Origin: a virus
Taxonomy: Duplodnaviria > Caudoviricetes
Virus record (IMG/VR): IMGVR_UViG_3300036805_000137
Location: 18,451 to 82,450 of that record
Reading direction: 5' to 3' (one strand)
DNA: 64,000 nucleotides
The position numbers and the translations under genes were made by a program. Positions 2,728 to 56,899 of the stretch are shown here, piece after piece (position 1 is the first letter of the stretch; each line of letters opens with the position of its first letter). The notes below the pieces were generated by a model that saw nothing but the letters and a program-made list of their open reading frames with translations, made no database searches and was not told the origin of the DNA.

Positions 2728-3164
2728 GCGGCAGCTGAGCTGTTGCATCGAGCGCCGGTACTGCAGGTGGTGTGAATACCGGCGCAGTAGCGCCTACGTG
2801 CTGCCCAGTGCTGATGTGCTGTGGTTCTGCCGATGCCCGGGTCACTCCTGGCGCTACACCCCGCCAGCAGGCCTGCAAGACGGCATCCTCACCGCAACCG
2901 AGAAAGCGCTAGTCATCCGAGCTCGCGCGGCTGTTCGAGGATGAGGAAAACGGAGCAACGCGTGTACACGAGCTCGATCTAAGATCCCGCTAAGCCAACG
3001 CTAAGATCATTATCAGACGGGTTGCCCGCACTCAGAGCAGGCCCGGTACACCCCGCCAGACAACAGCTTTTGCCGGTCAATGATGTTGGCCTGGCAACAC
3101 GGGCTGCCGGCCGTTTCCGGTGCTTGCCGGCCGGACACGCGTAGATGCGATGGTCGCCGCAAAC

Positions 3165-3422
3165 TCATGACGCAGACTCCTCAGTAGTAGCGGCCGGCAC
3201 GATAGCCGGTGAGGGCACGGTTCCCGGCCAGTTGGCCATGGCGCGCTGGTGCTCGGTTGCTGCCATCTCGGCAAGGTAGCGCCGGCCATCGAACTCAGGG
3301 CTCTCCCAGTCCGGGCAGTCATCGCAACGCACCGCGTGGAAATCGCCTGATGCGCTGGCGATGATGTACGTCTGGTGCACCGGCTCACGAACAGCCTTAG
3401 GCACTACAGTCGGCTCACTCAT
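3165..3422 (-). CDS. Hypothetical CxxC protein
   Basis: MSEPTVVP..., CDDC...EH, GAGGAG RBS. Confidence 0.6.
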   Translation of the reverse strand: MSEPTVVPKAVREPVHQTYIIASASGDFHAVRCDDCPDWESPEFDGRRYLAEMAATEHQRAMANWPGTVPSPAIVPAATTEESAS

Positions 3423-3539
3423 CGTTGCCCGGATCCTCCTCAAAATAGAAACACATGCAGTTCTCTACGGTGCATTCTCCATCGGCATCATGTTCGTCAA
3501 ACACATCACCGCACACGCATGTCGTATCCCCGGAAATGT

Positions 3540-3902
3540 TCACGCTGACTCCTCTTTGTGTGAGCGGCCGGCGCGCTTGCCGATGTGCTGCATGGTGGTG
3601 TACCGCCGCTCACCGGTCAGGCCCTTGCGCCAGTTGCGGCCGGGCAGGCTGGCCTTCCACTCTCGGATCTCGCGCTCACGGGAGGGCTCCCAGCCACGGA
3701 TCATCACGTCGCTGTTGGCAGTGGGGATCACTACGTCTGGTGCTGGGAATGTGGGCAGCTCACCGTGCTCCGCTCCCCAAATCCAGCGATTGACTGTCAC
3801 CGGACTGACGCCGAACAGACCAGCGATGTGCGCCACACCCATTAGCCGGCGGGTGCGGCTGGTGTGCTCGGTACCATTATCTATTGGTGCTGCGTCGGTC
3901 AC
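3540..3902 (-). CDS. Helix-turn-helix DNA-binding protein
   Basis: MGVAHIAGLFGVSPVTVNRW followed by FPAPD...RGW...W...PGR, typical of actinophage HTH regulators; GTG3902 with GGAGG RBS. Confidence 0.7.
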   Translation of the reverse strand: MTDAAPIDNGTEHTSRTRRLMGVAHIAGLFGVSPVTVNRWIWGAEHGELPTFPAPDVVIPTANSDVMIRGWEPSREREIREWKASLPGRNWRKGLTGERRYTTMQHIGKRAGRSHKEESA

Positions 3903-3999
3903 GCTACTACCTCCACTATTGCGATCGTATAAGTAACGTAGATGAGCAACAACACCAAACAGTACCGTGCGCAGTGCATCGCGCTGATCCGGCCTAGCA

Positions 4000-4293
4000 T
4001 CAGGTATCCCCCCGTTGGGCAAACCGCGCCACCCGCGGGCGCATGTGGTGGGATTCTAGCTGCCTGGCTAGAGCCTTGAGCCGGGCACGCTGGTTGCGCA
4101 CGTCCGCACGGTCAACTCGGCTCTCAAATTTGTAGAGGGCCTTGCCCAGCACGTTGTACGCAGCCATCACCGCGGCGTGTAGTTCCTCGCACAGCTCAAC
4201 TGGTGCCGGCTGAGCACCCAGCATCGCCCGCGTGGCTGCCGCAATGACCATGCGCGCCCGCGTCTCACTGTCCATGCTGTCGTCAGCCGCCAT
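4000..4293 (-). CDS. Hypothetical helical protein
   Basis: 97-aa ORF with GGAGAG RBS. Confidence 0.6.
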   Translation of the reverse strand: MAADDSMDSETRARMVIAAATRAMLGAQPAPVELCEELHAAVMAAYNVLGKALYKFESRVDRADVRNQRARLKALARQLESHHMRPRVARFAQRGDT

Positions 4294-4770
4294 TACTACT
4301 CTCCCGTCTTGCTCGTGTGCATGCGGATCACGTTAGTCACTCGCGGTTCCGCCAGCTGTGCAATTTCCAGTAATTCGGATAATGTCGCGTGATCCCGGAC
4401 AAACTCTACCAACAGATCACGCAATCCCTGAGTCTCACTGTCTAGCTCATCCACTCCTACTGCCCTCCCGTTTCGTCTTCACCGTCTTTGCCGTGGCCTG
4501 GGCAGCACGTGATGCACATTCGGCAGCGTGCACACCAACCAGCGATGCGATCTAAGCAAGTATCACACCGGGGGCAAGCGCCTGGGCAGCACGGGCCGGG
4601 ATGATGCCGTGCGGCTTGGATCAATGCCGGGTACGGGCCGGCGCGCAGACATCGGGGATTGTGGTGGATAGCTGCCGGCGGTACCCGGTGCCAGCAATCC
4701 TGAGCTCGGCACCGCGGCCACTCATTCGGCCGGCCGGACTTCCCCCCTTCCTTCCCCTGACGGTGCACCA

Positions 4771-5148
4771 TCACGGCACCCGGCGCAGATCTTTGGCATA
4801 CTCCCAACTGCGTAGCGAGCGCCACTGGACGAACACTTTAAGCCCTAGATGCGAGCCCGCTCCGTGGATATGTGCACCACGCTCTCTGTCTGCATCGGTC
4901 GGCTCGATCACCTGACCCGTATGCAGCGGACCCATCTGTCGAGCAACCAGCGTGCCGTAGGGGAAATCCTGAGACTGTTCGGCATCACTACACTCTGTTT
5001 CGTTGGGCTCATTAGCGCGCACCCAAGCGTGTACACGCTCAGCCTCTGCCCATACTTCCATGTAACGGGCACCCGGTGTTTCCTGCACGTACACCGCAAC
5101 AGCCTCAATGTCCCGCCAGGGGATCTCCGTTCGCTCTTGGTGACTCAT
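4771..5148 (-). CDS. Hypothetical protein
   Basis: MSHQERTEIPW..., in the leftward operon. Confidence 0.6.
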   Translation of the reverse strand: MSHQERTEIPWRDIEAVAVYVQETPGARYMEVWAEAERVHAWVRANEPNETECSDAEQSQDFPYGTLVARQMGPLHTGQVIEPTDADRERGAHIHGAGSHLGLKVFVQWRSLRSWEYAKDLRRVP

Positions 5149-5587: not shown

Positions 5588-5833
5588 CTAGGCACTGTTG
5601 CGGTGCCCGGTACGGACATTATGGCGGCTGGGAGATCCGTCTGGGTGGCCTCCCCAAATCCCGGCATCCTGGCCGGACGTGAGAGCCCACTCCAGACATG
5701 CCTGGCGCACCGGGCACCGCCGGCACACTGTCTTAGCTTCAGCGATCTGAGCAAGTGCTGGGCCAGAGGTACCGGCCGGGAAAAACAGCTCAGGATCCTC
5801 TGTCCGGCATTCTGCCTTGTGGCGCCAATCCAT
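5588..5833 (-). CDS. whiB: WhiB-family Fe-S transcription factor (WhiB1/WblE-like)
   Basis: MDWRHKAEC...DPELFFP...C-x2-C-x5-C, GIWGG turn. Confidence 0.95.
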   Translation of the reverse strand: MDWRHKAECRTEDPELFFPAGTSGPALAQIAEAKTVCRRCPVRQACLEWALTSGQDAGIWGGHPDGSPSRHNVRTGHRNSA

Positions 5834-8318: not shown

Positions 8319-8834
8319 TCACACGCCTGCTGGCTCAGGAATGGTGGCCTTGGTAGAGGTGGCCTTAGGTGCGGTGGCCTGCCCGTTGGTATCGGGGGCC
8401 GGCGCCTCCTGCACCGGGGATGCTGTGAGCAGTGCCTGCAGTGCCTGTACTCCAGCGTCGCCGCCAAGGTTGTACGCATCGAGCACACCCAGAGGAATGC
8501 GTCCGCGGTCGCTCACAGGGTAGCCGTGGTTAGTGGCCCAAGCCCGGATTGCCGCATTCTGCTCACGGTCTGCCCGGGTAACCGCGCGGGCTGGCGCGGC
8601 GCCGCTGGCCGTCACCGTCCTGGGTCGCCCAACGCCACGAGCCGGGGCACTAGTGGCCTTGCGGGCAGCTTCCACATACGGCGCCAGCGCGGTGCTGAGG
8701 CCACCAAAGTTGGTGTCCGTCAGATCGATCTCATACGTGGTGCCGTCCAGCTCGATGCTGTGCGTGGTCACGGGCGCGGCATCAGAGTGCTCAGTCTGGT
8801 CGAGGTCATCAAACCGTACAGTCTTGGTACCCAT
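8319..8834 (-). CDS. lsr2: Lsr2 nucleoid-associated protein
   Basis: DDLD...LDGTTYEIDL dimerisation domain; AAIRAWA...VSDRGRIP AT-hook domain. Confidence 0.95.
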   Translation of the reverse strand: MGTKTVRFDDLDQTEHSDAAPVTTHSIELDGTTYEIDLTDTNFGGLSTALAPYVEAARKATSAPARGVGRPRTVTASGAAPARAVTRADREQNAAIRAWATNHGYPVSDRGRIPLGVLDAYNLGGDAGVQALQALLTASPVQEAPAPDTNGQATAPKATSTKATIPEPAGV

Positions 8835-9108: not shown

Positions 9109-9588
9109 TTACTGGCCCTCGCTGCCGATGGCACTGTAAGACTCCACTGCGTGCGCGTACTTGTGCACGGTGGCCTTGGGCTTGCGCAGCTGGTGGGCTA
9201 CCCACATCCACCGGTCAGACTCTGGTTGATCTCCCCGGTGCGCGTAATCATTGAACATCAAGTGCAAGATCAGCGACCGCCAGAGCGGAATGTTGGCCAG
9301 CCACTCATCAATAACCGCCATGGCTGCCTTGCAGTCGGTTTGGTGCACGCCGGTCACCCGGTCACCCAGCACGGTAGCCAGCGCGTCTGCCGCGGTGATG
9401 CCCTCTGCGTATATCTGGTCAGCCTCGATGGTGTTAGCCGGCAGTGTGTCGTCAGTGATCGATGCCGGCGATGCCGGCGCGGGCGGCTGGGCAGCCGGTG
9501 TGGCAGGTCGGTAGGGCACCGGGCTGGCCGGTCGCCGTGGCGTAGGAGGCATGTCGGTCTCCGCTCGTGATTTACAGTCTGGATTCAC
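9109..9588 (-). CDS. Putative regulator divergent from the FtsK/TraB gene
   Basis: Pro-rich N-terminus; C-terminal HTH-like WVAHQLRKPKATVHKYAH (start could be 9552). Confidence 0.5.
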   Translation of the reverse strand: MNPDCKSRAETDMPPTPRRPASPVPYRPATPAAQPPAPASPASITDDTLPANTIEADQIYAEGITAADALATVLGDRVTGVHQTDCKAAMAVIDEWLANIPLWRSLILHLMFNDYAHRGDQPESDRWMWVAHQLRKPKATVHKYAHAVESYSAIGSEGQ

Positions 9589-9648
9589 AGACGTGAATCA
9601 TGGCTATAGACTACCGAGACACGTGCCCCCGACCCAACCGGATATGCC

Positions 9649-11676
9649 ATGACGCTCCGCAATGATCACTCATCCGAGTCATCCCGTGAGCTCGTGCCGA
9701 TGCACGCGGCGCGGCAGTCGGGCGCAGCGGAGCCCTACATCCCTGGGTGGCTGCGCAAGGCTGAGGCACACACGTTGATCCTCGACAAGCACCGGCTCTG
9801 GGCAAGCATCCAATATGCAGTGGATCCCTGGTACAGGATCCCTAAGGCGATCATCTACTGGGCTGGCCGGGGGATTTTCGGTGCGCTGGGCGAGATCCGC
9901 TACGTGTGGTCCGGCGGGCTGCGGGTCATCGATGGGCTTTACGCGTGGTCGATTGCGATCAACCACGAAAGAGCCGCCGCGGTGGCCGTGGGGACGACGC
10001 ATGCCTACCGGGGTGCTGAACGTCACGTCAATGTGCGGTCCCGGCGTGGTGCGGTGCTCTGGGCAGCCCTGGGGGCGGTGTCCATTCTGGGCTTGTGGTT
10101 GGGGATCTACTACCCGTCCTACGGCGCGCTCGCCGGCATCGGGCTGGCCGCGCTGCTCGATGTGATCGGTCGCCAGGGGAAGCCCAAATCTGAGGCACCC
10201 CCGCACACCCCGGTACCGCTGAAAAATGGCATGCCCACCTCTGCTCTCAAGCGCGAGATAAAAATCTTCCTAGAGGAGGAAGGGCTAGACAATGCCATCA
10301 CCGTAGCCACGGTGCGGTTTGCTCCGCAGCGCCACGCCTACTACATCGATCTAGTCACCGCAATAGCGATCAAGCCTGAGCTGTTGCGCGCTCTCGAGAA
10401 ACGCATCTACGCGCCAGACCGCGCCATCAGGATAGTGATTGATCCCGAAAACGCAGCGCTGCAGACACTGGTGGTCTCTACAGGCAACCCGCTGGCGAAT
10501 GTGCCGGAAGCTCCGTGGATCCCGGCAGGCACGGTGTCTGGTTGGGATCCGCTTGATCTGGGGCTGTCTATCGATCCCAGCTGCCCCTATGAGCTCGTGC
10601 TGGTGATGCGCAATGTTCTGTTGGTCAGCCGTACTCGTGGCGGGAAGTCCGTAACTCTGTCTACTGTCATTGACAGATTGTCGGCTACCAGTGATGTGGT
10701 TACCTGCGCAGGGGCATTGATCAAATCTTCAATTTTTGATGCCTGGCGTTCGGTAATCTACAAAAAAGCCGAGAATGTGAACCAACTGACTGAGTTGCTG
10801 GAATGGTTGATCGGGCAGATTCAGCAGCGTGACCGGATGCTCAAAGATATCAACTCAGATGATGATCCCAGCAACGATGTTGACAAATGGAATCCCACAC
10901 TGGGGCCAGCCATCGTGTGCGTCCTCGATGAATTCCCGTGGATCGCGAAATATGATGGAACCAAAGTTCACCAAGACAGCAAGCCAAATCTGCTAGATAT
11001 GGTCGAGACCATTATGCGGACCGGATCCGGGTTGGGGGTGTCACTGGTATTGGCCTGCCAGGCATCCGGTAATGAGGATTGGGGATCATCGGTTATCTAC
11101 AAGCAAGCCAACGTCAAAATTATCGGTCCGTGCACAGAGCGGGATACCGTAGATCTGCTCGGTAAAGACAAACGTGATCAGGGTTATGCACCACACCTAC
11201 TGCAACCAGCGGATGAGCACAATATCAATGATGCCGGCATGGCGATTGTTGATGGCCCTGGTTTCGGTTCCGACTTTGTGCGCAGCTACTGGCCGTTCAA
11301 GGTTAAGGCGAGGGCGATCCGCCGGGAAGCTGAATGGGCACAGCAAGGTAACCGCCCAATGCTGCCGATTGAGTCTCATACTGCCCCGGTAGGTTACATA
11401 GATGCCGAGGAAGTGCCGCCGGCTCTTACCGCGGTGGAAATGGCATTACGCCATTATGGTGCCTCTATCCTATCCAGCGCGCTGGTTGTGAAGTACGCCA
11501 ATGAGCAAGGGGATAAGTGGACGCAGGTCTCGCTGGCAACAGCACTATCTAAAGAGTCTCCCACAGTGGTTGTGAAAGCTCACAGCGGTCGCTGCCAGGT
11601 CAATAAGAAACCGTTGCAGTGCTATCACCGGGAAGACGTTGCCGCGGCTATCAAAGCACTGGAGAGCTCGCCGTGA
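9649..11676 (+). CDS. FtsK/SpoIIIE-family DNA translocase, TraB-like (actinomycete plasmid/AICE type)
   Basis: N-terminal TM pair, Walker A SRTRGGKS, Walker B IVCVLDE, RTGSGLGVSLVLACQ motif, C-terminal wHTH-like domain. Confidence 0.85.
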   Translation: MTLRNDHSSESSRELVPMHAARQSGAAEPYIPGWLRKAEAHTLILDKHRLWASIQYAVDPWYRIPKAIIYWAGRGIFGALGEIRYVWSGGLRVIDGLYAWSIAINHERAAAVAVGTTHAYRGAERHVNVRSRRGAVLWAALGAVSILGLWLGIYYPSYGALAGIGLAALLDVIGRQGKPKSEAPPHTPVPLKNGMPTSALKREIKIFLEEEGLDNAITVATVRFAPQRHAYYIDLVTAIAIKPELLRALEKRIYAPDRAIRIVIDPENAALQTLVVSTGNPLANVPEAPWIPAGTVSGWDPLDLGLSIDPSCPYELVLVMRNVLLVSRTRGGKSVTLSTVIDRLSATSDVVTCAGALIKSSIFDAWRSVIYKKAENVNQLTELLEWLIGQIQQRDRMLKDINSDDDPSNDVDKWNPTLGPAIVCVLDEFPWIAKYDGTKVHQDSKPNLLDMVETIMRTGSGLGVSLVLACQASGNEDWGSSVIYKQANVKIIGPCTERDTVDLLGKDKRDQGYAPHLLQPADEHNINDAGMAIVDGPGFGSDFVRSYWPFKVKARAIRREAEWAQQGNRPMLPIESHTAPVGYIDAEEVPPALTAVEMALRHYGASILSSALVVKYANEQGDKWTQVSLATALSKESPTVVVKAHSGRCQVNKKPLQCYHREDVAAAIKALESSP

Positions 11677-12164
11677 GCCTGTTACTCACGGGTATCCGTG
11701 ACCAGCTGATATTAGACACACTTGACCCGTATTGGTTCTGGGATCGGGTAGATGTCAGATCACCTGATGAGTGCTGGCCTTGGCTCATGGGATGCAGTGG
11801 TGATGGCTACGGAACCTTTCGACTACCAAATATACACTGCATACTACGTGCGCACCGTGTGGCACTTTTGTTAAAAATACAGCATCCGCTTAACGAGCTG
11901 CATGCACTGCATCATTGTGATAATCCGCCATGTTGCAATCCTCTGTGTCTTTGGTCGGGTACGAATAAAGATAACGTAGAAGATTGTATCGCAAAAGGCC
12001 GGCAGGGCAATCATACTCTGCGATTCACTGGTGCCCAGCAGGCAGGCATCAGACGTAGTTATGCCTATGGCCTAATCAGTATGAGAGGATTAGCAAAACG
12101 CCATAAAGTAAGTACGAGAACCATTCAGGACATTATTCATAGGACGGGTGGCTATGCCGGTTAG
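11673..12164 (+). CDS. HNH homing endonuclease
   Basis: FWDRVD...ECWPW, AHRVA, HHCDNPPCCNP...GTNKDN; GTG overlaps the upstream stop. Confidence 0.9.
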   Translation: MSLLLTGIRDQLILDTLDPYWFWDRVDVRSPDECWPWLMGCSGDGYGTFRLPNIHCILRAHRVALLLKIQHPLNELHALHHCDNPPCCNPLCLWSGTNKDNVEDCIAKGRQGNHTLRFTGAQQAGIRRSYAYGLISMRGLAKRHKVSTRTIQDIIHRTGGYAG

Positions 12165-12179
12165 AGCACGCTACGTACC

Positions 12180-12301
12180 TGTAGTGCCTGTAGTGGCCTG
12201 TCCCGTTTTCGCAGGTCAGAGCTTGATCATGTGTAGTGCCTGCGTAGCATTTGATCATGATTGTAACGGGCAAGGGTCCTACACAGTTGATCTTTGTAGT
12301 G
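12180..12301. repeat. Cluster of TGTAGTG direct repeats (candidate clt-like site)
   Basis: TGTAGTG at 12180, 12189, 12232 and 12295. Confidence 0.7.
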
Positions 12302-12354
12302 GGGCACACTGGCCCTTGCACACTGCGGACCCGCAAGGGGTTGGGTGATCGAGG

Positions 12355-12702
12355 ATGACTATCTTGCTGATGTTCGTGCTGGTGATCATTGCGGCACTGT
12401 CGCTGACCTGGCACATGGCGTTCGTGGCACACGTCGTGCTGCTTGCGCCGGCCGCCGTAGTGGTGTGGTGGGTGGACGTGACCCGGCGCCCGATCGTGCC
12501 CTGTAAGCACTGCGACAAAGGCCGTAGCTGGGATGGGAGGGGCGAGCACTTCGGTGAGTTCTGCCCTGGCGCTCTGCTCGGCATCGGCAGTTGCGGAGGC
12601 ACGGGCAAGAAGATGCGTTGGGAGGCCCGGCTGATCTCGATCTTGGGTGGAGCTCGCGCGCTGCGCAACCTGCCTGAGAACATGCGAGGCGATGATGTCT
12701 GA
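12355..12702 (+). CDS. Membrane protein with DnaJ-like zinc finger
   Basis: Two TM segments, then PCKHCDKG...C...CGGTGKK. Confidence 0.75.
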   Translation: MTILLMFVLVIIAALSLTWHMAFVAHVVLLAPAAVVVWWVDVTRRPIVPCKHCDKGRSWDGRGEHFGEFCPGALLGIGSCGGTGKKMRWEARLISILGGARALRNLPENMRGDDV

Positions 12703-12721
12703 CATTACCTCATCATACCCC

Positions 12722-12751
12722 TTGACATGGTGTGGTTGGCAAGGGTACTGT
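12722..12751 (+). promoter_or_regulatory. Rightward promoter (TTGACATGGT family)
   Basis: TTGACA-18-TACTGT. Confidence 0.6.
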
Positions 12752-12854
12752 TTGAGGTGTTGGAAGGGTGTAGTGCCCCTGGCAGGTAAGGGGGGTCAGA
12801 TCACCGCCAACGCCTATGCGGTAGCCGCCAGCGGTTCGAGCGGGAGCGACAGTC

Positions 12855-13115
12855 ATGCACAAGATCATCAAAGCCGCCCACAAATCGATCACCACGCGGC
12901 GTGCGATGCCCCAAATGTGGTTCGAGGCCAACATGGTTGCCAACATCGCAGTCCCGTTTTCTGTGTGGACTCAGAATTGGTACATGACGTTGCTCGCGAT
13001 GATCCTGCAGCTGATCTGCGTCATGTGGTATCTGCTTGGTTACCGGCCAGTCCGCAAGCCAGCTCGCCGCACCGCAACCGCTGCCCCGCGAGCTCGCAAG
13101 ACCAAGACTACCTGA
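12855..13115 (+). CDS. Two-TM membrane protein
   Basis: Hydrophobic core, basic C-terminal tail. Confidence 0.7.
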   Translation: MHKIIKAAHKSITTRRAMPQMWFEANMVANIAVPFSVWTQNWYMTLLAMILQLICVMWYLLGYRPVRKPARRTATAAPRARKTKTT

Positions 13116-13416: not shown

Positions 13417-14607
13417 ATGGCCGCCAGCACTCGCCAGCTGCGATCATACCAACAGAATGCCATCACCCATATCCAAGCCGAGTGGGCCAGCGGGATTGTT
13501 CGGACCGCGATTGTTCATCCCACAGGTGCCGGTAAAAACGACACGACCGCCAAGCTCTGCGTGGATGAGGTAGACAGCGGTGGGCGCGTGCTGTTCCTCG
13601 CCCATCGGGTAGAACTGCTGGATCAGATCATCACGCGCATCAGCCACTACTCATCGCTGCCAGTTGGGCGGATTCAGGGAAACCGCAGCGATACCGACCA
13701 CTCAATCGTGGTGGCCTCCGTCCAGACTTTGTGCCGGCCGAAACGTCGAGCCGCGCTCAACTGGCAGCCCACGCTGGTCATCATTGATGAGTGCCAACAC
13801 AGCATGACTGACTCATACCTGGACATCGCGCAATGGGCTGGTTGTTTTGACGGCCGGCGCACCAGACTGCTTGGCGTCACCGCCACTCTCAGCCGCACTG
13901 ACGGACAATCTTTCGATGGTCTGTTCCAGTCGGTTGCTGATGTGATCTCCTATGACTGGGCATTCCGCCAGAAGTTGCTAGTGCAGCCCGTTGTCAGGCG
14001 CGTCACTCTCAACCGATTCTGGGATCGATTCAGCTTCCGCCGCATTTCCGCGGAGCAACTATTGCAGCGCAATGCTCAACGGGCCGCGGAAGGATGGGTG
14101 CGCAAGGCGCAGAATCGGATCACCATCGCCTACGCGCAGACTATTGCGGAGGCTCATCACCTCACCGCCGCATTTGAGAGCCTCCACGTTCCAGTTGCTT
14201 TGGTCATAGGGACGACACCATACGAGGACCGCAAACTCATCTACAAGCAGCTGGCCGCCGGCGAGATCAGAGTAATGGTCAACGTCAATGTGGCTACCGA
14301 GGGATTCGATTGCCCACAGGTGAGTTGCATTCTCCTGGCCCGCGCCACACAATCAGCGGGACTATTCACTCAAATGATTGGGAGGGGTTTACGACCTTGC
14401 ATTGATCCGGCAACACAGCAACCATGGACTGATCCCACTACCGGAAAGGCAAAAACCAATTGCCTCATACTCGATACGGTCGGCGCAACTTGGCAATTTG
14501 ACCTAGCAACTCTCATTGATATCAACCCGCGCAATGTGCGAAAGGAAAAACTCAGCATATTACAGAAAATCCAACCACGTAATCTGCTTTGGTTAGTAAA
14601 GTCATGA
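13417..14607 (+). CDS. Superfamily 2 DExH helicase, copy A
   Basis: LRSYQ, PTGAGKND, IIDECQH, TAT, VATEGFDCP, QMIGRGLR. Confidence 0.9.
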   Translation: MAASTRQLRSYQQNAITHIQAEWASGIVRTAIVHPTGAGKNDTTAKLCVDEVDSGGRVLFLAHRVELLDQIITRISHYSSLPVGRIQGNRSDTDHSIVVASVQTLCRPKRRAALNWQPTLVIIDECQHSMTDSYLDIAQWAGCFDGRRTRLLGVTATLSRTDGQSFDGLFQSVADVISYDWAFRQKLLVQPVVRRVTLNRFWDRFSFRRISAEQLLQRNAQRAAEGWVRKAQNRITIAYAQTIAEAHHLTAAFESLHVPVALVIGTTPYEDRKLIYKQLAAGEIRVMVNVNVATEGFDCPQVSCILLARATQSAGLFTQMIGRGLRPCIDPATQQPWTDPTTGKAKTNCLILDTVGATWQFDLATLIDINPRNVRKEKLSILQKIQPRNLLWLVKS

Positions 14608-37200: not shown

Positions 37201-39778
37201 CGCTGCGAGCGCTGAGCTTGATCGCAGACACGAACAGAGCAGCAAACGATCTTCACAAGATCAAACGAGTGAAATGTCCGATTCACCTACTCCGTGTACT
37301 AAGCAATCAACTTCACCCGCCGTTCACCCTCCTGTGACCGAAACGAGACCTGATCTTGTGACGGGTTCAAACCCGTCACACAACCCGTCACAAACCCGTC
37401 ACAAGATCAACATTCCTCCTACCAGTAGTAATACTCTTATTTTTGATCTATGTGACGGGTTGACGGGTTTTTCTAGCTATGGAGCTGTCATAAAAAATGA
37501 AGATCAATCTTCCTTAATGATCTCTGGGCAAATATATGGGGATATACCCGAGGTAACCCGTCACCCGTCACAGTCGATCATTTCAGAGGGGGTGACCTCG
37601 CGAAACGACTGTGACGGGTCATTTTCCCAACCAGTCACAGAGCCCGCGGCCAGCCCGGCGCCGGTCGTGACCTGCGAGCCGCTAGCCCAAATGGATGAGG
37701 CCAGCGCTACGGCGCGGCTAGTCGAGCTGCGAGCCCAGCGCACCCAGCTCAATAGGTTGATCAAGAAAACTAACGGGGCAGATCCCCTGCACGGCGTGTA
37801 CACGTACACGGTGGGCCAGCTGGCCGGCGAGATCAAGCAAGTCGAGGTGATGATCCGAGGCCACCGCGCGGCGACCAAGCGAGCGGCAGCGGTAGCGGAA
37901 GCCGGCGGTGATCTCCTAGAGCTCCCAGCGATCAAACTGCGGGGCCAGCCGGCCCGCTCGTGCTCCGTGGATGAGGCTGCCGCTGCGGTGCGAGCCACCA
38001 TGGCAGCCCGGGCTGGCCGCGTGACGGCCGATATCGAATCCAACGCCTACCCGATCGGGCACCCGGACTACGGCGTGCGCACGCTGCAGCTGGGCGATGC
38101 GCTCACCGGCACGGACTGGGATGTCACTGACCCGGTGCAGTTCGCCGTGTGCACCTTGCTCCTGAGCGAGGCAACCGAGATCGAGGCCTACTCCGCATCA
38201 GTCGAGATATCCAACCTGGCCTACATCGGCATGATCGATTACCGCAGCGGCTGGGCGCGAGCTCGCGATGTAGTGATCCAAGCCCAGTTGAACAACCCAG
38301 TGGGCACGCTGAGCTCGGACAGCGGCCTAAAACCGCAAGCGGAGCTGCACCTGCCGGATCCGGCCAGCCCGGCAGCCGATGCGCGCCGCGCCGCGCTGTT
38401 CAAAGCGGGCGGCTGGATCACTGACACCAAGATCAAAAACGCCGGCGGTAGTGAGGGTGGCGGCTGGGTAGCCCGCGAGCGCTCTGGTTGGGCCAACGCC
38501 GACCCCCGGTACCGCACCAGCATTGACTATGCCGTCTCTGACATCCATGACACAGCTGCGCTGGGTGAGGCCCTACCGATGCCGGCGCCAGGCGTCTACG
38601 CGCGGGAGGTGGCCGTACAGGCGGCTGTAGGGGCAGTTTCCTACGTGGGCATCGCGCTCGATCGCAGCCATATCGAGGCCAAGATCGCAGAGCACTCGCC
38701 AATGCGCCGCGCCGCTGCGGAGGAACTGGCCGCGATGGGCATCACCAACCCGGGCAGCAACGATCAGATAGCCGCGGTGTTGATGGCTCACGGCGCCCGG
38801 CTGCCCCGGGGGGAAAAATCAGGCAAGCCCGGCGTAGCAGCGGGTGTGCTGGAAAAACTACCGCGCAATCAGGGTGAGCAATTTACACCCATTGTGGAAG
38901 CGATACTACGATTTCGGCATCATCAGCGGATCCTGTCCACCTACCTGCGACCCTATTACCTGCTGTGCACCCATGGGGATGGACGGATGCGCAGCACCGT
39001 GTACACGCTGCAGGCTGATACCGGCCGCATGTCCTGTGTCCACGAGAATCTGACCAACATCCCGCGCATCGGCGGAATTCGAGAATCTTATGTCACTGAC
39101 CCGGGGGATCTGTTCGTAGATGCTGACCTTTCCGGGGTAGAGGTGGCCGTACTCGCCGCGCTATCACAGGATCCGGTATTGCTTGAGCTGGTTGCCTCTG
39201 GTCGGAAACTGCACAAAATCATTGCTGAAATGGTCTACGGAGCTGGTTACTCAGGCGAGGAATACACCTACGTCAAAAATGGTGTGTTCGCCAAACTCTA
39301 CGGCGCGGGCATCGCGCGCATTGCCGATACGGTCGGTTGCACTGAGCGGGAAGCTCAGATGATGGTGGATGCGCTCGATGAGCTAGCCCCGCACACCAAG
39401 CGATGGGGTTATGATCTGCGCAATAAGGCCAAGGCAGGCATGCAGCGGGTGCAATTGTATTCCGGCCGGGTGCTGCACCTGCCGTCCGCGACTCCGCACA
39501 AGATAGTGAATTACTATGTCCAAGGTACCGCGCGTGAGCTCTTGGTTGACGGGTTGCTGAGATGGCGCCAGACAAAGTGGGGCGACTACGGCATCATTGT
39601 GCCCGTGCATGATGAGATCCTGGCCACCGTGCCCGCGGTAGAGGCTGACGAGGCCATGGCTGCGTTGGGCCAGTGCATGGCCTCAGAGCTCTACGGCGTG
39701 CGCATCGGCGCCGAACCCAAGTGGATCAATCCCTCTGACCGCTGGCTGTCCAATGACCACCCACTAGCGAAAGGCTAA
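34259..39778 (+). CDS. Fused replicase: bifunctional primase-polymerase + D5/SF3 helicase + family A DNA polymerase
   Basis: N-terminal IDID...EILQRHHRYCVVWPS prim-pol; Walker A GETGRGKT (36032) and FIDE...LKQLTGG; exo DIESN; PolA motifs TGRMS, DADLSGVE, KNGVFAKLYGAG, VQGTA, VHDE. Confidence 0.9.
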   Translation: MAYGGYASFYVIAGWRCVLPVPVRSKTPPPTGYTGDHGTDVVAPEVLAKWERAHADDSIALRLPAGVICIDIDHYDKPKVLPDGTVTVVAKRGNDTIAEYEAKWGPLPPTWASTARGDPNTGAGPSRTLFYRVPPGRYATTLGDPRNGAVEILQRHHRYCVVWPSINPDANNAQYYWYGPGDLGEQRPPWIDELTLLPNAWVIGLAEGASAASAPAAPMAEGAALLAALLDDDRPPCADITNIALTAADELDHAAAGSRHDIATGRIFQLIRAAAFGHPGAGEVLADLRTRWDALTAGEHRADEFERMASSAACKAVTEVSATGCPVPVAYDPCLMGTVVAPPVPGRPSHTTGPDGELDDASDADVLDIPAPAPPIIWSRRALIGTGAFDPRGHLDQVLAAQALERIQPVLRFATDVGAWAVRGPYSWDMAPGDMADWALTELFDLMPHGDPDSESTEAQDRAARRKRFGQNSGSAGIASKLRALVRASGASSTVRLSDLDADPEIMWAGRLPWALRSCIERPALANLPADTPHLHSAGVAPSGLGIEHPTPAWDAFLAAVWPDPAIRQWALHVVSVALTGYSDAVMPLLWGETGRGKTAFTALVMSVLGSYAIAADPRLLTSAADNAHASIIYALRGVRLAFIDEGPRDAKWAVSKLKQLTGGARLTGNPMRGNPVNFDPSHTLMLTCNPEETPGFQDKALRRRLRLIPCEGEPDAVGRARAAITPAIWRAEAPGVLAKLMHATARWLDDPGVAAQWSAPEAIRFRAEDIANEEDQIRQWIDAEMEPCDHGTRVSDLLIWFIDWLRKVAPRANPPSATLFGRKLTELGYLALHQRDGKHRPLRRRQTNYGPDVPPPSAPGPGQPIHAPLPPMPPLTVIQYDQRNAAPRSTGPSADAAPTTAPDGGSARSSDNPGDLPTPPTETIMSSGAVVPREPTPVAETEPQTRNCAQANETASADPRSPGSDRICEKLGQTDGDGDLAASAELDRRHEQSSKRSSQDQTSEMSDSPTPCTKQSTSPAVHPPVTETRPDLVTGSNPSHNPSQTRHKINIPPTSSNTLIFDLCDGLTGFSSYGAVIKNEDQSSLMISGQIYGDIPEVTRHPSQSIISEGVTSRNDCDGSFSQPVTEPAASPAPVVTCEPLAQMDEASATARLVELRAQRTQLNRLIKKTNGADPLHGVYTYTVGQLAGEIKQVEVMIRGHRAATKRAAAVAEAGGDLLELPAIKLRGQPARSCSVDEAAAAVRATMAARAGRVTADIESNAYPIGHPDYGVRTLQLGDALTGTDWDVTDPVQFAVCTLLLSEATEIEAYSASVEISNLAYIGMIDYRSGWARARDVVIQAQLNNPVGTLSSDSGLKPQAELHLPDPASPAADARRAALFKAGGWITDTKIKNAGGSEGGGWVARERSGWANADPRYRTSIDYAVSDIHDTAALGEALPMPAPGVYAREVAVQAAVGAVSYVGIALDRSHIEAKIAEHSPMRRAAAEELAAMGITNPGSNDQIAAVLMAHGARLPRGEKSGKPGVAAGVLEKLPRNQGEQFTPIVEAILRFRHHQRILSTYLRPYYLLCTHGDGRMRSTVYTLQADTGRMSCVHENLTNIPRIGGIRESYVTDPGDLFVDADLSGVEVAVLAALSQDPVLLELVASGRKLHKIIAEMVYGAGYSGEEYTYVKNGVFAKLYGAGIARIADTVGCTEREAQMMVDALDELAPHTKRWGYDLRNKAKAGMQRVQLYSGRVLHLPSATPHKIVNYYVQGTARELLVDGLLRWRQTKWGDYGIIVPVHDEILATVPAVEADEAMAALGQCMASELYGVRIGAEPKWINPSDRWLSNDHPLAKG
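37357..37639. repeat. Iteron-like AACCCGTCACA repeats in both orientations around an AT-rich core (candidate origin)
   Basis: TGTGACGGGTT at 37357 and 37451; AACCCGTCACA at 37370, 37382, 37393; variants at 37461, 37555, 37565, 37610, 37629. Confidence 0.75.
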
Positions 39779-45913: not shown

Positions 45914-46171
45914 TCAGCTGAGCAGTGTGTGTAACCCCTCGATGTCAGCCACCCGGTAGGCGTGGCGAGGCGAACCCCCCGTCTCTGATGGACGCATACC
46001 CAGATCGGTCAGGTAGCCGTGATCAGCCAGTCTGCTCAGAATCCCGTAGACCACGCTGGTATTGAGGTCTAGTGCAGTCTTGAGCTCACCGCCGTAGTGT
46101 TCGGTATCAGGTGACTTGAGCAGTTCAGCCACAACCGCCCGGACGTGTGTAGTGCGGAACATGGGTGTCAT
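45914..46171 (-). CDS. PadR-like winged-helix regulator
   Basis: HYGGEL...VVYGILSRL...GYL...PRHAYRV; ATGA overlap with the helicase. Confidence 0.75.
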   Translation of the reverse strand: MTPMFRTTHVRAVVAELLKSPDTEHYGGELKTALDLNTSVVYGILSRLADHGYLTDLGMRPSETGGSPRHAYRVADIEGLHTLLS

Positions 46172-47400
46172 CTCCCACGGATGAAATCGAGGACGCGGCG
46201 GCCGAAGCTGGGGGTAGGCAGGAGGCCTACGTCTGCGTAGTTCGTGCGCTGCCACCAGTGACGCTTGGCTGGCTGGCCACTGTTGCGGGGAGTCTGGGGC
46301 ATGCTGCGGTAGCGCGCGTTGCGGATATCAATCAGGGTCATCAGCTCGAACTTGCGAGTCACGCCGACCACATCGAGCACCAGACAGTCTGTCTTGCCAT
46401 CAGCCAGACGCAGCCCGCGGCCTACCATCTGCTCATAGAGGCCCGCTGATTGAGTCATCCTGGCGATGAGCACGCAGGACACCGCGGGGCAATCCCAAGC
46501 CTCAGTGGCCACACCTACGTTGACCATCACGCGTGTCTCACCGGCCGCCAGACGCTTGTAGATGGCGCTGCGGTCCTCGTGCGGGGTTGATCCGATCACG
46601 AGCTCAGTAGCCACTCCAGCGGTCAGGAAAGCATCTACCAGCACGTTGGCACTCTCGATGGTGGGTGCGAAGGCGACCGTGATGCGGTTGTCAGCCTCGC
46701 GTAGCCATCCCTTGACGATGCGCCGTGCGTCTTGCTCGATGACGCTGCCCACGCCGCTGGCGGAAAGATCCCCGGCCACGGTGCGGATGTGATCGAGCGA
46801 CTGGCGCAGCTTGATGACCCGGCCGTGTGGTTCGACCAACCAACCGTGATCGATGGCCCAATCAATGCCCTTGACATCTGCAACGCTGGAGAACAGTGGG
46901 TCGAATGCCTGGCCGTCCGCGCGGTACAGGGTGGCGGTGAAACCAACGGTGCGGGTGCCGTGGCCCTCGAAACAACCAGCCCATGTCATGATATCCCAGT
47001 AGGAATCAGCCATTGCATGGTGGCACTCATCGATGATGAGCATGGTGGGTTTCGGGCAGCTGGCCATCCGCTTGGGCCGGCACAACGTCTGCACCGATGC
47101 GGCGAGGATACGGCAGTGAGTCTCATTGAGGCCAGCCTGGATGCGGCCTACCGGGATGGCTGCGTACTGCGCTACCCGGGCCACGAACTGATCCAGCGGC
47201 TCTGAGCGGTGCGCTATGACCATGGGCCGGCCGCCGGCTAGCGCCTCATCGGTGCACAGTTTCGCGATGATGTCAGTCTTGCCCAGTCCTGTGGCGTGTA
47301 CTACTACGGTACGGTTGATGCCTTGAGCCCACTCGGCTAACACGGCATCGTAACCCTCTTGCTGGTATTCTCTCAGCTGGCGGGTTGTTGTTGTGGTCAT
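46168..47400 (-). CDS. Superfamily 2 DExH helicase, copy B
   Basis: LREYQ, ATGLGKT, IIDECHH, TAT, QMVGRGLR. Confidence 0.9.
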   Translation of the reverse strand: MTTTTTRQLREYQQEGYDAVLAEWAQGINRTVVVHATGLGKTDIIAKLCTDEALAGGRPMVIAHRSEPLDQFVARVAQYAAIPVGRIQAGLNETHCRILAASVQTLCRPKRMASCPKPTMLIIDECHHAMADSYWDIMTWAGCFEGHGTRTVGFTATLYRADGQAFDPLFSSVADVKGIDWAIDHGWLVEPHGRVIKLRQSLDHIRTVAGDLSASGVGSVIEQDARRIVKGWLREADNRITVAFAPTIESANVLVDAFLTAGVATELVIGSTPHEDRSAIYKRLAAGETRVMVNVGVATEAWDCPAVSCVLIARMTQSAGLYEQMVGRGLRLADGKTDCLVLDVVGVTRKFELMTLIDIRNARYRSMPQTPRNSGQPAKRHWWQRTNYADVGLLPTPSFGRRVLDFIRGR

Positions 47401-52208: not shown

Positions 52209-52625
52209 ATGCCTGATCCTCGAAACAGTGCACCACGCACCCGCCAGGTGCAACGCCACACCACCGCTACCACGGTGCCTGCCCCGGCCGCGGGCGCGGT
52301 AGCCCGCTCTACAGCTGCCCAGCTGCGCCGTGAGTCGCTACACCGCATCCCTGAGTTGCCGGTTGATGAGGGCAACGCTCATCCGCCGATGCCGGATCCA
52401 CCCACGGGTGATCACGGGATTGTGGAGCTCGCCGCGGATGACGCCTCGCCGGCATCGGGCACCGGTCAGCCTGATGAGGATGACGACAAAGACAAAGATG
52501 AGCGCAGTAGGCGGCTACGGCGTGAGGAAGACAGCGATGATCAGGACGCGGGCGCCAAAGCTGATGATGGCGGGGCGGCCAAAGATCCTGATCCCGATGA
52601 TGAGAAACCCGCACCCAAATCCTGA
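52209..52625 (+). CDS. Acidic, disordered protein upstream of terminase
   Basis: GAGGGAG RBS; Asp-rich. Confidence 0.6.
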   Translation: MPDPRNSAPRTRQVQRHTTATTVPAPAAGAVARSTAAQLRRESLHRIPELPVDEGNAHPPMPDPPTGDHGIVELAADDASPASGTGQPDEDDDKDKDERSRRLRREEDSDDQDAGAKADDGGAAKDPDPDDEKPAPKS

Positions 52626-52631
52626 TCACTG

Positions 52632-52961
52632 ATGGCCGATGCGCGTGCATACATCACTGTCCTAGAGGCATATGAGGATCAGGTCCGGCAATTATCTGCT
52701 GAGTTGCAGTTAGCGGAATGCGGACTGATCGAGATCGGCCGGCGGCACGCGCAGGACTTCGACAAAGGACACGAACCATCGGGCGGTGGTGTTCAGCGGG
52801 TATTGACTGAGCTCCGCAAATTACATCGTGAGTGGAGTAGTCTACTGCCCGCTGACCAGCCGCGAAGTGAGCTAGATGCTGTCAGAGCTAAGCGAAATCA
52901 AAGGTTGTCAGACTCCCCGGATCTGCAGCGTCCCCCCGTGGGTGACGACAGCGGGGCCTGA
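52632..52961 (+). CDS. Terminase small subunit (probable)
   Basis: Helical; C-terminal SELDAVRAKR overlapping terL. Confidence 0.6.
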   Translation: MADARAYITVLEAYEDQVRQLSAELQLAECGLIEIGRRHAQDFDKGHEPSGGGVQRVLTELRKLHREWSSLLPADQPRSELDAVRAKRNQRLSDSPDLQRPPVGDDSGA

Positions 52962-54411
52962 TGCGGTTGAGCTCGGTCGGTTAGCCGGCCTGCCGCTCGA
53001 TGAGTGGCAATGCGATGTGCTGGACGGTGCGCTAGGGCTGAGTGAGAATCGCACCTGGGCGGCACCAGAGATCGGCCTTGTGGTGGGCCGGCAGAACGGA
53101 AAGAGCACCATCGCGGAAGTAGCCAGCCTAGAGGGATTGTACCTGCGCAAGGCCAAGCTCGTGTACACGGCGCACCTGATGGCCACGAGCAGAAAAATGC
53201 GCGAGCGGATACAGTTACTCATCGAATCCTACCCGGATTTCGACAAAGAGGTAAAGCAGATACGTACGGCCAATGAGGAACAATCCATAGTACTGAAACC
53301 GCCCAAGGCACCATTGCTTATCACCTCAACATCCCGCGGGACGAAAGGCCGTGCGGTAGAGGGTGCCCGTATTGATTTCGTAGCACGGACCGGCAGCGCA
53401 GCCCGGGGTTGGGCCGGCTATGATGTCATTTTCTTTGATGAGGCATTTGCCCTGACCGCTGAAATGGTCGGTGCACTCATGCCCATTATGTTTGCTAAAG
53501 CACACTGGCAGATCTGGTATCTGTCCATGGGCGGCAAACTGGAATCCAGCGCGCTGCGGTCGGTGCGTGAGCGCGGCATCGCTGGTGATCCAGAAGTGGC
53601 CTACTACGAGTGGTCGGTAGATGAGATCGAGTACGGAGCCAATCCACGTGCGGTGGCTGCCGACCCGCGGCAATGGGCCAGAGCCAACCCTGCGCTCAAC
53701 TATGAGGTGCCCGGCCGCTACCTCACCCTCGCTACGCTCTCCCGGGCGCAACGCTCGATGGACCCGCTCATCTTTGCTCGTGAGGTGCTGTGCATCTTCG
53801 AGGATCCCCGCGGCGCACCGCTGATCAACCTCATTGCCTGGGCGCGCAACGCCGACCTCGCCAGCCAGATCAGCTCAGGCACCGTGTTTGCCTTCGACTG
53901 CACACCGGGCCTGACACACGGCTGCATCGGTGTGGCCGGCTTTCGGACCGATGGCATCCCGCACGCGGAGATCACGGGCGCAGACGGCGTGCTAGACCAC
54001 CGTGAGGGCACTGAGTGGATGGTTGACCGCATCGTAGAGCTCAACGACACCTGGCAGCCCGTGGCCTGGGTGTGCGATGCCACCGGGCCGGGCCGGGCTC
54101 TGCTCATCGAGCTGCAGAAGCGCGGCATCGAGCCCTATGAGGTCACCGCTACCGAGCTAGGCCAAGCGTGCGGCGAATTCCTCAACGCAGCTCACCACCC
54201 GGACGCCGACAAAATCCGCCACCTCAACCAAGTGGTGGTCATCGAGGCAATCAAGTCGCTGCAGAAACGAGACATCGGTGATGGTGCCTGGGCCTGGGGA
54301 CGCAAGGCGAGCGAATATAACATTTCATCTGTAATGGTGCTCACGCTCGCGCTGCACGGTCTGGCAGTGTTTGGCATTAATATGTATGACCTCATGCAGT
54401 CAGTGCACTGA
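52876..54411 (+). CDS. terL: Terminase large subunit
   Basis: LDEWQ, VGRQNGKS, YTAH, RG...IFFDEA, ANPAL, nuclease AFD. Confidence 0.95.
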   Translation: MLSELSEIKGCQTPRICSVPPWVTTAGPDAVELGRLAGLPLDEWQCDVLDGALGLSENRTWAAPEIGLVVGRQNGKSTIAEVASLEGLYLRKAKLVYTAHLMATSRKMRERIQLLIESYPDFDKEVKQIRTANEEQSIVLKPPKAPLLITSTSRGTKGRAVEGARIDFVARTGSAARGWAGYDVIFFDEAFALTAEMVGALMPIMFAKAHWQIWYLSMGGKLESSALRSVRERGIAGDPEVAYYEWSVDEIEYGANPRAVAADPRQWARANPALNYEVPGRYLTLATLSRAQRSMDPLIFAREVLCIFEDPRGAPLINLIAWARNADLASQISSGTVFAFDCTPGLTHGCIGVAGFRTDGIPHAEITGADGVLDHREGTEWMVDRIVELNDTWQPVAWVCDATGPGRALLIELQKRGIEPYEVTATELGQACGEFLNAAHHPDADKIRHLNQVVVIEAIKSLQKRDIGDGAWAWGRKASEYNISSVMVLTLALHGLAVFGINMYDLMQSVH

Positions 54412-55425: not shown

Positions 55426-55664
55426 TGAGTAGCGAATTCTCTAAGGCACCGAAACGTCAAGGCCGACCCGTGCGGTTACGTGAAGACGGATTGTTATGGT
55501 TTATCAATCGATGCGTATTCCACCCGCGGGGTTACGCGTTGGCAGTGGATACAGATACTAATGCTTGGTATCTGTTAGGCGATGGTGTTGAGCCTTGGGT
55601 GTTTGGCGGGGATGGTTCTGATGAGACTGATTTGTTGCGGCAGATTAAGGAATTGATGCCGTGA
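55422..55664 (+). CDS. Hypothetical protein
   Basis: REDGLLWFINR..FHPRG.AL. Confidence 0.65.
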   Translation: MMSSEFSKAPKRQGRPVRLREDGLLWFINRCVFHPRGYALAVDTDTNAWYLLGDGVEPWVFGGDGSDETDLLRQIKELMP

Positions 55665-56899
55665 GTCTGTTATTCCGCACCGCCAACATACAGGGGCCTT
55701 ACGCAGGCTACTGGGGCGAGTTTGTGGGCGCCACCGCGGCTGATCTCGTGCCCTACCGCATGCCCATGCAACAGGTCCTACCCGGCCACATGGTCAATGA
55801 CCAGTCAGCAATGCGGCACTCAGCTGTCTGGGGATGCTTGCGACTGCGCGCCAACCTCATCAGCACCTTTCCGTTGGAGACGTTCCGTCAGGGCGAGGGC
55901 GATTTACCCGCGCTCAAAGTTCCCTCGCCACCCTCAATTCTACGGCCGGGCGGCTCGCAAGCCGATTATGTCGAGTGGATGTACTCAACACAATTTGACC
56001 TAGACCGCGCGGGCAACTCAGTAGGTATTATCCGCTCTATCAACGGCTACGGGCTGCCTGCAGAAGTTGAGTTGATCCCATTATCCTGGGTATCAGTGCG
56101 CACTATCGACAATCGCATCACGCATTGGTACATCCGCGGTCAGGAGTATCCACCAGAGCTCATTTGGCATGAAAAACAATACACGGTGGCCGGTTTTCCT
56201 CTGGGATTGTCCCCCGTAATGTACGCGGCATGGTCGATTAGTGAGGGACTGAGCATTCAGGACTTTGCGATTTCGTGGTTTACCATGGGAGGAATACCGC
56301 GCGGGCACTTAAAAAACAACACTCAGCCCACTGTCACGGATAGCCAAGCCGCTGGCATCAAGGCCAAGCTCAAAGAATCGGTGCAGTCAGGTGACGCGCT
56401 GGTCACGGGTAAGGACTGGGATTATGCCCTCATCAGCCCAGAGCAGACTGGTATGGAATGGATCGAGGCCCGCCGGCTCACACCCATTGAGGTGGCCCGA
56501 TTCTTTGACGTCCCGGCAGATCTCATTGATGCTGCGATATCCGGGGAGTCGGTAACTTACGCTAATGTGACGCAGCGAAATCTGCAGTTCTTATCGATGA
56601 GCCTCGGGCCAGCCATCATTCGGCGTGAAAACAACCTCAACAAAATGCTGCCAAACAAGCAATTTGTGAAGATGAACATCGATGCACTTCTGCGAAGTGA
56701 CCCGAAAACTCTCACAGAGATGCTGAACCTGCAAGTAGCCGGCCGGTTGCTCACACCAAATGAGGCGCGCTTTATGTTAGACCGCCAGCCATTGACAGAG
56801 GCGGATTGCGCAGAGTTTGACCGCTTCTGGCCCCCACGTCCAGCACCGGGTGCGACCAATCCGACCACACCGCCCAATGCACCGCAGCCGCCGCTCTAG
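55661..56899 (+). CDS. HK97-family portal protein
   Basis: AMRHSAVWGC, GLSP, IARFF-like VARFFDVP, YAN, LLTPNEAR. Confidence 0.95.
   Translation: MSLLFRTANIQGPYAGYWGEFVGATAADLVPYRMPMQQVLPGHMVNDQSAMRHSAVWGCLRLRANLISTFPLETFRQGEGDLPALKVPSPPSILRPGGSQADYVEWMYSTQFDLDRAGNSVGIIRSINGYGLPAEVELIPLSWVSVRTIDNRITHWYIRGQEYPPELIWHEKQYTVAGFPLGLSPVMYAAWSISEGLSIQDFAISWFTMGGIPRGHLKNNTQPTVTDSQAAGIKAKLKESVQSGDALVTGKDWDYALISPEQTGMEWIEARRLTPIEVARFFDVPADLIDAAISGESVTYANVTQRNLQFLSMSLGPAIIRRENNLNKMLPNKQFVKMNIDALLRSDPKTLTEMLNLQVAGRLLTPNEARFMLDRQPLTEADCAEFDRFWPPRPAPGATNPTTPPNAPQPPL

Follow-up and report, generated by a model that had tools for sequence, protein, structure and literature searches.

A translocase-like gene and a repeat array in a tailed-phage genome

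We analyzed a 64,000-nucleotide stretch of a tailed-phage genome (IMG/VR record IMGVR_UViG_3300036805_000137), hereafter the window; it corresponds to bases 18451-82450 of a complete virus record of 82,450 bp, which carries 127-bp direct terminal repeats. Our subject is a module at window positions 9109-13115, in which a gene for a 675-amino-acid (aa) protein, predicted to be a double-stranded DNA (dsDNA) translocase of the TraB/FtsK family and called the pump below, is preceded by a divergent small gene and followed by an HNH endonuclease gene, a repeat array resembling the clt loci of Streptomyces plasmids, and the genes for two small membrane proteins (Table 1). The genes run leftward up to 9588, and a long rightward block begins at 9649 with the pump gene. 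We have high confidence that the module holds a TraB-like translocase with a cognate-looking site, and moderate to low confidence that its biological role is the spread of DNA between compartments or touching hyphae.

The initial annotation of this DNA had described a membrane-anchored FtsK/SpoIIIE ATPase with a winged helix-turn-helix (wHTH)-like domain at its C-terminus, and each of these parts was recovered in the pump. The two hydrophobic stretches of the predicted membrane hairpin are modeled as helices by AlphaFold, and the model is confident at aa 190-280, 320-510, and 590-675. Foldseek searches with the core returned an FtsK motor (E 1.9e-11) and the clostridial conjugation coupling protein TcpA (1.2e-9), as well as EssC/EccC. 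The Walker residues K333, D427, and E428 are invariant in at least 15 pump homologues, at identities down to 35%. When the C-terminal 101 residues were folded alone from 32 sequences, the model reached a predicted local distance difference test (pLDDT) score of 82 with a helix-strand-helix-helix-strand-strand topology. Its top VIA-align matches were mostly winged helices (Cdt1, histone H1/H5, MarR, PadR, the Cdc6 winged helix, and Fur) at modest Z scores of 5.0-5.8, and Foldseek on this domain alone gave no match below E 0.07. We consider the domain a winged helix with moderate confidence; the initial annotation had named the lack of a wHTH as grounds for giving up its reading, and what we found is a C-terminal model that mostly matches winged helices.

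The pump is a divergent relative of plasmid Tra proteins

Pfam returned nothing for the pump at an E of ≤0.01, the FtsK_SpoIIIE model (PF01580) reaching E 0.19 and 11.6 bits against a cut-off of 24, and the NCBIfam model NF041214 (plasmid_TraB, cut-off 800 bits) matched neither the pump protein nor anything else in the whole genome. Calibration showed NF041214 to be a narrow model, giving 28.7 bits for pFP1 Tra and no match to pIJ101 Tra at an E of ≤0.001; two relatives (P0014 and P0015) match it at 1.7e-9 and 1e-5. PHROG families of FtsK-like proteins matched the pump itself at 1.7e-6 and 3.2e-6. Searched exhaustively with phmmer, 1.84 billion representatives yielded just 153 proteins at an E of ≤1e-3, and among the 71 of these that were sampled, NF041214 was found in 36 (best 4e-42), Pfam FtsK_SpoIIIE in 17, and the FtsK model in 4. 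When the pump was compared by tblastn with 72,556 plasmids, the only matches were 24 Streptomyces plasmids and one Amycolatopsis plasmid, and its identity to plasmid Tra proteins was about 22-28%. One match is the pFP1 locus, where tra lies between genes for a GntR regulator and a DUF2637 (SpdB2-type) protein. By contrast, pIJ101 Tra also matches true FtsK genes from many phyla.

Profile-profile comparison with hhalign aligned the phage family with the pFP1-type plasmid Tra clade at probability 100 and E 8e-47; the alignment spans residues 159-673 and takes in the C-terminal domain. The FtsK-like protein of phage Coruscant followed at E 8e-16 (residues 312-567), two FtsK motors at E 6e-10 (residues 319-472 only, the Walker A-B core), and pIJ101-type Tra at E 1.7e-7 (residues 208-652), values to be read with the differing depth of the profiles in mind, the FtsK profile consisting of two sequences. 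We also built motor trees with FastTree (151 rows) and IQ-TREE (63 rows), both rooted on FtsK. In both, the phage family, the Tra proteins of Streptomyces theta- and linear plasmids, and the Coruscant protein formed one clade with a Shimodaira-Hasegawa-like approximate likelihood ratio test (SH-aLRT) value of 99, outside which fell pIJ101 Tra, the Tra protein of a rolling-circle-replicating plasmid, and FtsK. The TraB-like ATPase of the initial annotation thus groups with plasmid Tra/TraB and apart from FtsK in trees made up without EccC. These comparisons place the pump in the Streptomyces plasmid Tra/TraB translocase radiation as a very divergent predicted member, and not with chromosomal FtsK or EccC.

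Two other families were tried and rejected. An EccC/EssC-type secretion ATPase would have two or three tandem ATPase domains, versus the single one in the 675 aa of the pump, and the EccCa/EssC models gave E 0.12-0.15. For chromosomal FtsK/SpoIIIE, PF01580 stayed below threshold, no FtsK_gamma match was found, and the repeated DNA motif is clustered rather than dispersed.

The repeat array keeps its position and changes its sequence

A downstream cluster of direct repeats had been reported in the initial annotation; it is present in the 190-bp gap before the first small membrane protein gene and is conserved in place in relatives. A fifth, outlying TGTAGTG copy occurs at 12769, in the next gap. 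The longer word TGTAGTGSC is found seven times in the window versus 1.08 expected, a number reached in none of 100 shuffles, and a 7-mer scan of the phage's own genome ranked the array gap among the 22 of 4,113 overlapping scan windows that hold at least four copies.

In two metagenomic contigs whose DNA is 93% identical to the window (L007 and L008), the array begins about 5 bp past the pump stop codon; in L007 it comprises one inverted copy, a tandem run of three CTGTAGTGG units, and another two copies. Copies turn over between 93%-identical genomes, while the array itself persists. The inverted copy in L007 reads GGCACTAC, and the corresponding window sequence reads GCACGCTAC.

A complete 88-kb phage (G001), a diverged relative whose pump is 54% identical, has a counterpart at the same place after its pump gene, built of CGGAGTGCC repeats with the word CGGAGTG versus TGTAGTG in the window. 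This 202-bp gap contains CCGGAGTGCC four times directly and once inverted, in addition to CACTCCG copies, and five of the seven genome-wide GGAGTGCC copies fall within it. When the 88 kb were scanned without bias for the 7-mer repeated most often, this gap came first as a 200-bp stretch among 4,394 overlapping scan windows. A further relative with 35% pump identity (L010) carries CCGGCAC four times, beginning 7 bp past its pump gene. As a positive control, four Streptomyces plasmids were examined, and their 7-mer arrays start within about 50 bp of the tra stop codon, with six copies in BB1-1-1, three to four in the S. olivoreticuli plasmid, four in pFP1, and three in NBC_00536. In pWTY27, four 7-bp repeats within 175 bp at and after the end of traA are bound by TraA (PMC3583192), and TraB of pSVH1 reads 8-bp repeats via helix 3 of its wHTH (PMC4447253). 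The putative loading array is thus placed where clt sits in Streptomyces plasmids, with its position kept and its sequence changed in the diverged relative. The same synteny had been suggested as something to look for in relatives, and the four genes and the array are indeed kept in G001, at 49-54% identity.

The module belongs to a virulent-looking phage lineage

Consistent with the earlier claim of a virion-encoding carrier, the tailed-phage genome contains genes for the terminase, portal, head protease, and major head protein. An actinobacterial host is suggested by the WhiB and Lsr2 genes; identity of the capsid protein to those of Mycobacterium phages is just 26-30%. Matches to a tyrosine integrase, a serine recombinase, or a ParB domain were found nowhere in the whole genome, a non-match being no proof of absence, and on this ground the phage looks virulent. 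No cultured phage is similar in DNA over the region, a megablast against 50,697 phages having given no match, and two scans of 185,579 species genomes found no relatives. Those we located came from a metagenome scan (four loci) and from viral scans (two distinct contigs).

The identity of the pump to its G001 homologue parallels that of the large terminase (57%), a helicase (62.5%), and the capsid protein (69%), which suggests that the pump has long been inherited vertically in this phage lineage. Recent cargo was rejected as an explanation, the module being conserved in step with core genes. A siphophage unrelated to the window phage, known from a 69-kb viral contig (G002; loci L022-L025), has a 37% identical pump homologue with a different terminase and capsid.

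Table 1. Features of the module and of the surrounding phage genome, in window coordinates
Feature	Position	Strand	Basis or remark
WhiB gene	5645-5827	-	
Lsr2 gene	8319-8834	-	
Divergent 147-aa protein, candidate regulator	9109..9552	-	listed open reading frame extends to 9588
Promoter-like site of pump gene	9582..9612	+	TTCACA 9584-9589, 17-nt spacer, TAGACT 9607-9612; consensus scan
TraB/FtsK-family dsDNA translocase (predicted), 675 aa	9649..11676	+	fold, motifs, family comparison
Membrane hairpin (predicted), aa 135-174	10051-10170	+	hydropathy, stretches aa 135-153 and 156-174
Walker A K333	10645-10647	+	
Walker B D427-E428	10927-10932	+	
Winged helix (predicted), aa 591-673	11419-11667	+	
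HNH homing-type endonuclease gene	11673..12164	+	PHROG 1872 E 6e-17, four more HNH PHROGs
clt-like repeat array	12165..12354 (190-bp gene-free gap)	+	TGTAGTG at 12180, 12189, 12232, 12295; TTGATCATG twice
115-aa membrane protein, four-Cys zinc-ribbon-like motif	12355..12702	+	hydropathy
86-aa membrane protein	12855..13115	+	hydropathy; 52% identical in G001, same place
Primase-polymerase, 1,839 aa	34259-39778		several helicases elsewhere in genome
Large terminase	52876-54411		
Portal	55661-56899		
Head protease	57114-58049		
Major head protein	58168-59610		

Genes flanking the pump

An alignment of the divergent gene product with nine homologues (10 sequences) puts its true start at Met13 (9552). 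The N-terminus is proline-rich, and a conserved C-terminal segment, ILHLMFNDY...WVWVA.Q..P.ATV.KYAH, looks by eye like a helix-turn-helix (HTH). Neither Pfam, PHROG, nor NCBIfam supported an HTH, and the PDB profile search gave noise; a weak Atlas match to "LmbU family regulator" clusters (0.92) is the sole lead. The 88-kb relative has a copy in the equivalent position with 49% identity. The divergent HTH-like gene of the initial annotation is accordingly present and conserved, while its HTH went unsupported by the profile libraries and the protein could be assigned to no family. The further analogy drawn there, with divergent Kor/TraR repressors, failed for the GntR type, no GntR domain having been found anywhere in the genome.

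In the 60-bp gap between this gene and the pump gene, the palindrome GATTCAC-N4-GTGAATC (9582-9599) overlaps the promoter-like site, which we take as the presumed promoter of the pump gene. Both hexamers and their 17-nt spacing are kept in G001 (L003 6934-6965); there, the palindrome that overlaps the first hexamer is another one, CCGGAT-N12-ATCCGG.

The HNH gene, which the initial annotation did not list, sits between the pump stop codon and the array, its GTG start overlapping the TGA stop (GTGA). It looks like a recent homing-type insertion: the contigs L007 and L008 are without it, about 500 bp being exchanged for 24 bp.

The 115-aa protein has one clear N-terminal membrane helix (aa 1-19), a second hydrophobic stretch discerned by eye, and the Cys motif CxxC...C...CGGTG. 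It had been described as a DnaJ-zinc-finger membrane protein; the membrane helix and four Cys are there, and a DnaJ-type Pfam match is not, leaving a zinc-ribbon-like motif at most. The further membrane gene of the initial annotation corresponds to the 86-aa protein, for which Pfam gave subthreshold matches only. For the 115-aa protein, Pfam, PHROG, NCBIfam, PADLOC, plasmids, and cultured phages gave no match, and neither protein has a match in plasmids, cultured phages, NCBIfam, or PADLOC. A DUF2637 (SpdB2-type) domain occurs nowhere in the genome, and the suggestion that Spd helper proteins assist the ATPase was not supported, as the small membrane proteins are without detectable plasmid kin. 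In G001, the 115-aa protein is 50% identical and adjoins the pump, and in the siphophage G002 a homologue with all four Cys kept is encoded 1.7 kb downstream of the pump gene. This conservation beside the pump and the recurrence of the Cys-rich protein make a functional link of the small membrane proteins to the pump plausible. A PADLOC search with six module proteins found no match to a defense system, which was rejected as a candidate.

Comparison with known transfer systems and phage FtsK-like genes

The pump resembles the Tra/TraB/TraA proteins of Streptomyces plasmids (pSVH1 TraB, pWTY27 TraA, pFP1 Tra, and pIJ101 Tra/KilA), each a single protein of about 650-870 aa that is anchored in the membrane by its N-terminal part, has an FtsK-type motor, and ends in a wHTH; TraA of pWTY27, for example, has 688 aa and two membrane helices (PMC3583192). 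The layout is also shared, with a cluster of 7- to 8-bp repeats directly after the gene and a divergent small gene upstream, and the profile homology to pFP1-type Tra extends over the whole cytoplasmic part. Unlike the plasmid systems, the phage module has a pump of low identity to plasmid Tra and below threshold in curated models, an upstream gene that is not GntR, and no recognizable Spd protein, and it is carried by a phage that encodes virions, has replication machinery of its own, and showed no plasmid or integrative functions. From chromosomal FtsK/SpoIIIE, with which it shares the motor fold, Walker motifs, and probably a winged helix reading short DNA words, it differs in having a two-helix hairpin instead of the four N-terminal membrane helices (4TM domain), no gamma-domain match, and a clustered motif.

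Phage-borne pumps have precedents in the FtsK-like genes of actinophages and in pZL12. FtsK-like genes are routinely recorded in Streptomyces phages, as annotation only (10.1101/2024.02.16.580700, PMC11536984, PMC13587820), and a single phage-borne FtsK-type ATPase is likewise found in the cultured Streptomyces phages Coruscant, Mandalore, and those of the BE cluster (PHROG 12531 and 1358). The pump is 25% identical to the Coruscant protein over the motor only, and unlike the pump gene, the Coruscant gene is followed by no array. Phages of that type are 120-134 kb long and tRNA-rich, with capsid genes that the window capsid protein does not match by tblastn. In Coruscant (L012), a cultured lytic phage, the gene at 3119-4963 is annotated as "FtsK-like DNA translocase"; its product, which NF041214 matches at 4e-8, branches beside pFP1 Tra within the Streptomyces plasmid Tra clade.

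The initial annotation knew of no demonstrated phage conjugation and thereby overlooked the Streptomyces plasmid-phage pZL12, whose transfer is described as tra dependent in papers that cite the original work (Zhong et al. 2010, J Bacteriol 192:3747, as cited in PMC4487206, PMC3583192). As far as those accounts go, pZL12/phiZL12 is likewise a single replicon with virion genes and a Tra-type function, the latter putative in the window phage; by the same accounts, pZL12 is stably maintained with ParA and ParB, unlike the window phage with no ParB or integrase match. pZL12 was not among the 25 plasmids matched by the pump in tblastn.

Proposed function and alternatives

In the mechanism that we propose, the pump, whose gene comes first in the long rightward block past the divergent promoter region and behind a conserved promoter-like site, would enter the membrane through its helical hairpin and, by analogy with TraB, form a ring. 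Its C-terminal winged helix would bind the TGTAGTG repeats on phage DNA, the 190-bp array acting as the cognate loading site and clt analogue, and the motor would then pump the phage genome as dsDNA through a septum or into a neighboring hypha or cell. The use of such a pump would be a virion-independent spread of replicating phage DNA in infection, similar to intramycelial spreading, which depends on TraB (PMC4447253). Because no integrase, recombinase, or partition gene was matched, spread at the time of infection is favored over conjugation from a stable donor, and classical conjugation of that kind is unlikely. That a TraB-like pump loads at the adjacent array and moves phage dsDNA between compartments or cells is the reading we prefer, with about equal weight for and against it.

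Several points count against it. Array binding, ring formation, ATPase activity, transfer, and the biological role are what we infer from the fold, motifs, homology, and an array conserved in position with changed sequence. The pump scores below every curated model tried, the tree rows were picked by similarity to the query with EccC left out, and the FtsK profile comprises only two sequences. The homologues in the siphophage G002 and in Coruscant have no obvious adjacent array. In the window, the array occupies a gene-free gap 5′ of the next gene, where it may act as an operator or in another cis role. Mycelial growth of the host is not established, the host being placed only as actinobacterial, and the usual partners are lacking, with no GntR repressor and no DUF2637/SpdB2 protein in the genome and small membrane proteins that have no plasmid kin.

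The most credible alternative, which we nevertheless regard as unlikely, is that the pump acts within one cell, where it would handle replicating phage DNA by clearing or segregating it at closing septa or into spores in the manner of FtsK/SpoIIIE/SffA, or help resolve concatemers, with the repeats as its signal for direction or loading. A motor of the FtsK fold joined to a winged helix that reads sequence would suit such a role, and the pump gene lies among replication genes, with a helicase gene at 13417-14607. However, its nearest kin are plasmid transfer proteins and not septal FtsK, guidance of the FtsK type uses dispersed oriented motifs whereas the motif here is clustered at one site, and the FtsK gamma domain found no match.

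It is less probable still that the array is not the site of the pump at all and is an operator or promoter element of the downstream membrane protein genes, or an origin, its adjacency being incidental. The array does lie directly upstream of the gene at 12355-12702, an extra copy occurs in the next gap, and iterons are typical of origins. Nonetheless, a scan of 12165-12354 turned up neither a sigma-70-like promoter nor a terminator, the motif is not present in the promoter region of the pump itself, and the primase-polymerase gene contains a better candidate for an origin (37368-37571). Four Streptomyces plasmids and L010 share the layout, with the array right after tra.

Marginally weaker again, and in our judgment improbable, is an action on competitors or the host, by which the pump would expel incoming DNA in superinfection exclusion or, mimicking FtsK, interfere with host septation or sporulation. 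The PHROG category of phage FtsK-like proteins is "moron, auxiliary metabolic gene and host takeover," and this phage also has the host-type regulators WhiB and Lsr2, but PADLOC gave no match, a cognate-looking site on the phage's own DNA would not be required, and inheritance of the gene has kept pace with that of core genes. Very improbable is a decaying plasmid cargo or cargo from an actinomycete integrative and conjugative element (AICE), functionless in the phage, as might be imagined from the HNH gene inserted between gene and array and from the missing Kor and Spd partners, because the open reading frame is intact, its catalytic residues are invariant across the homologues noted above, the four genes and the array keep their synteny in G001, and the GC content of the module resembles that of the remainder of the genome.

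Returning to transfer between compartments, we tentatively extend it to a fuller scenario, which we rate well below the basic reading. By means of its own TraB-type pump and a private clt-like site, a virulent tailed phage may force replicating genomes past the cross-walls of hyphae or into cells in contact with them, so that one adsorption would lead to the infection of many compartments without free virions, with the winged helix and the repeat word coevolving in each lineage. The combination is distinctive: a virulent-looking lineage, a very divergent pump that tracks the core genes, a lineage-specific repeat word, and an HNH gene wedged between gene and site. If the pump does move phage DNA between compartments or cells, phages of filamentous actinomycetes would have a second route of spread, unaffected by receptor loss, DNase-resistant capsid barriers, and adsorption-based defenses. 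The boundary between lytic phages and conjugative elements would be blurred, and the "FtsK-like" genes of actinophages would gain a concrete, testable function.

Other repeat sites and replication genes

The most repeat-dense 200 bp of the genome are at 37368-37571, with 3.3 tandem units of CAAACCCGTCA and inverted copies, TGACGGGT twice, and ACCCGTC twice; this stretch, within the 1,839-aa primase-polymerase open reading frame, is a candidate replication origin. In that single frame, the N-terminal part resembles a primase/helicase (PHROG 1156, E 6e-88) and is fused to a C-terminal part that is a DNA polymerase (PHROG 17, E 4e-74). Two paralogous helicase genes lie on opposite strands at 13417-14607 and 46168-47400, both assigned to phrog_16 (E 4e-72 and 4e-79). 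Finally, CCTGATC occurs four times within about 200 bp at approximately 52491-52730, just upstream of the large terminase gene, possibly as a packaging or terminase-binding site.

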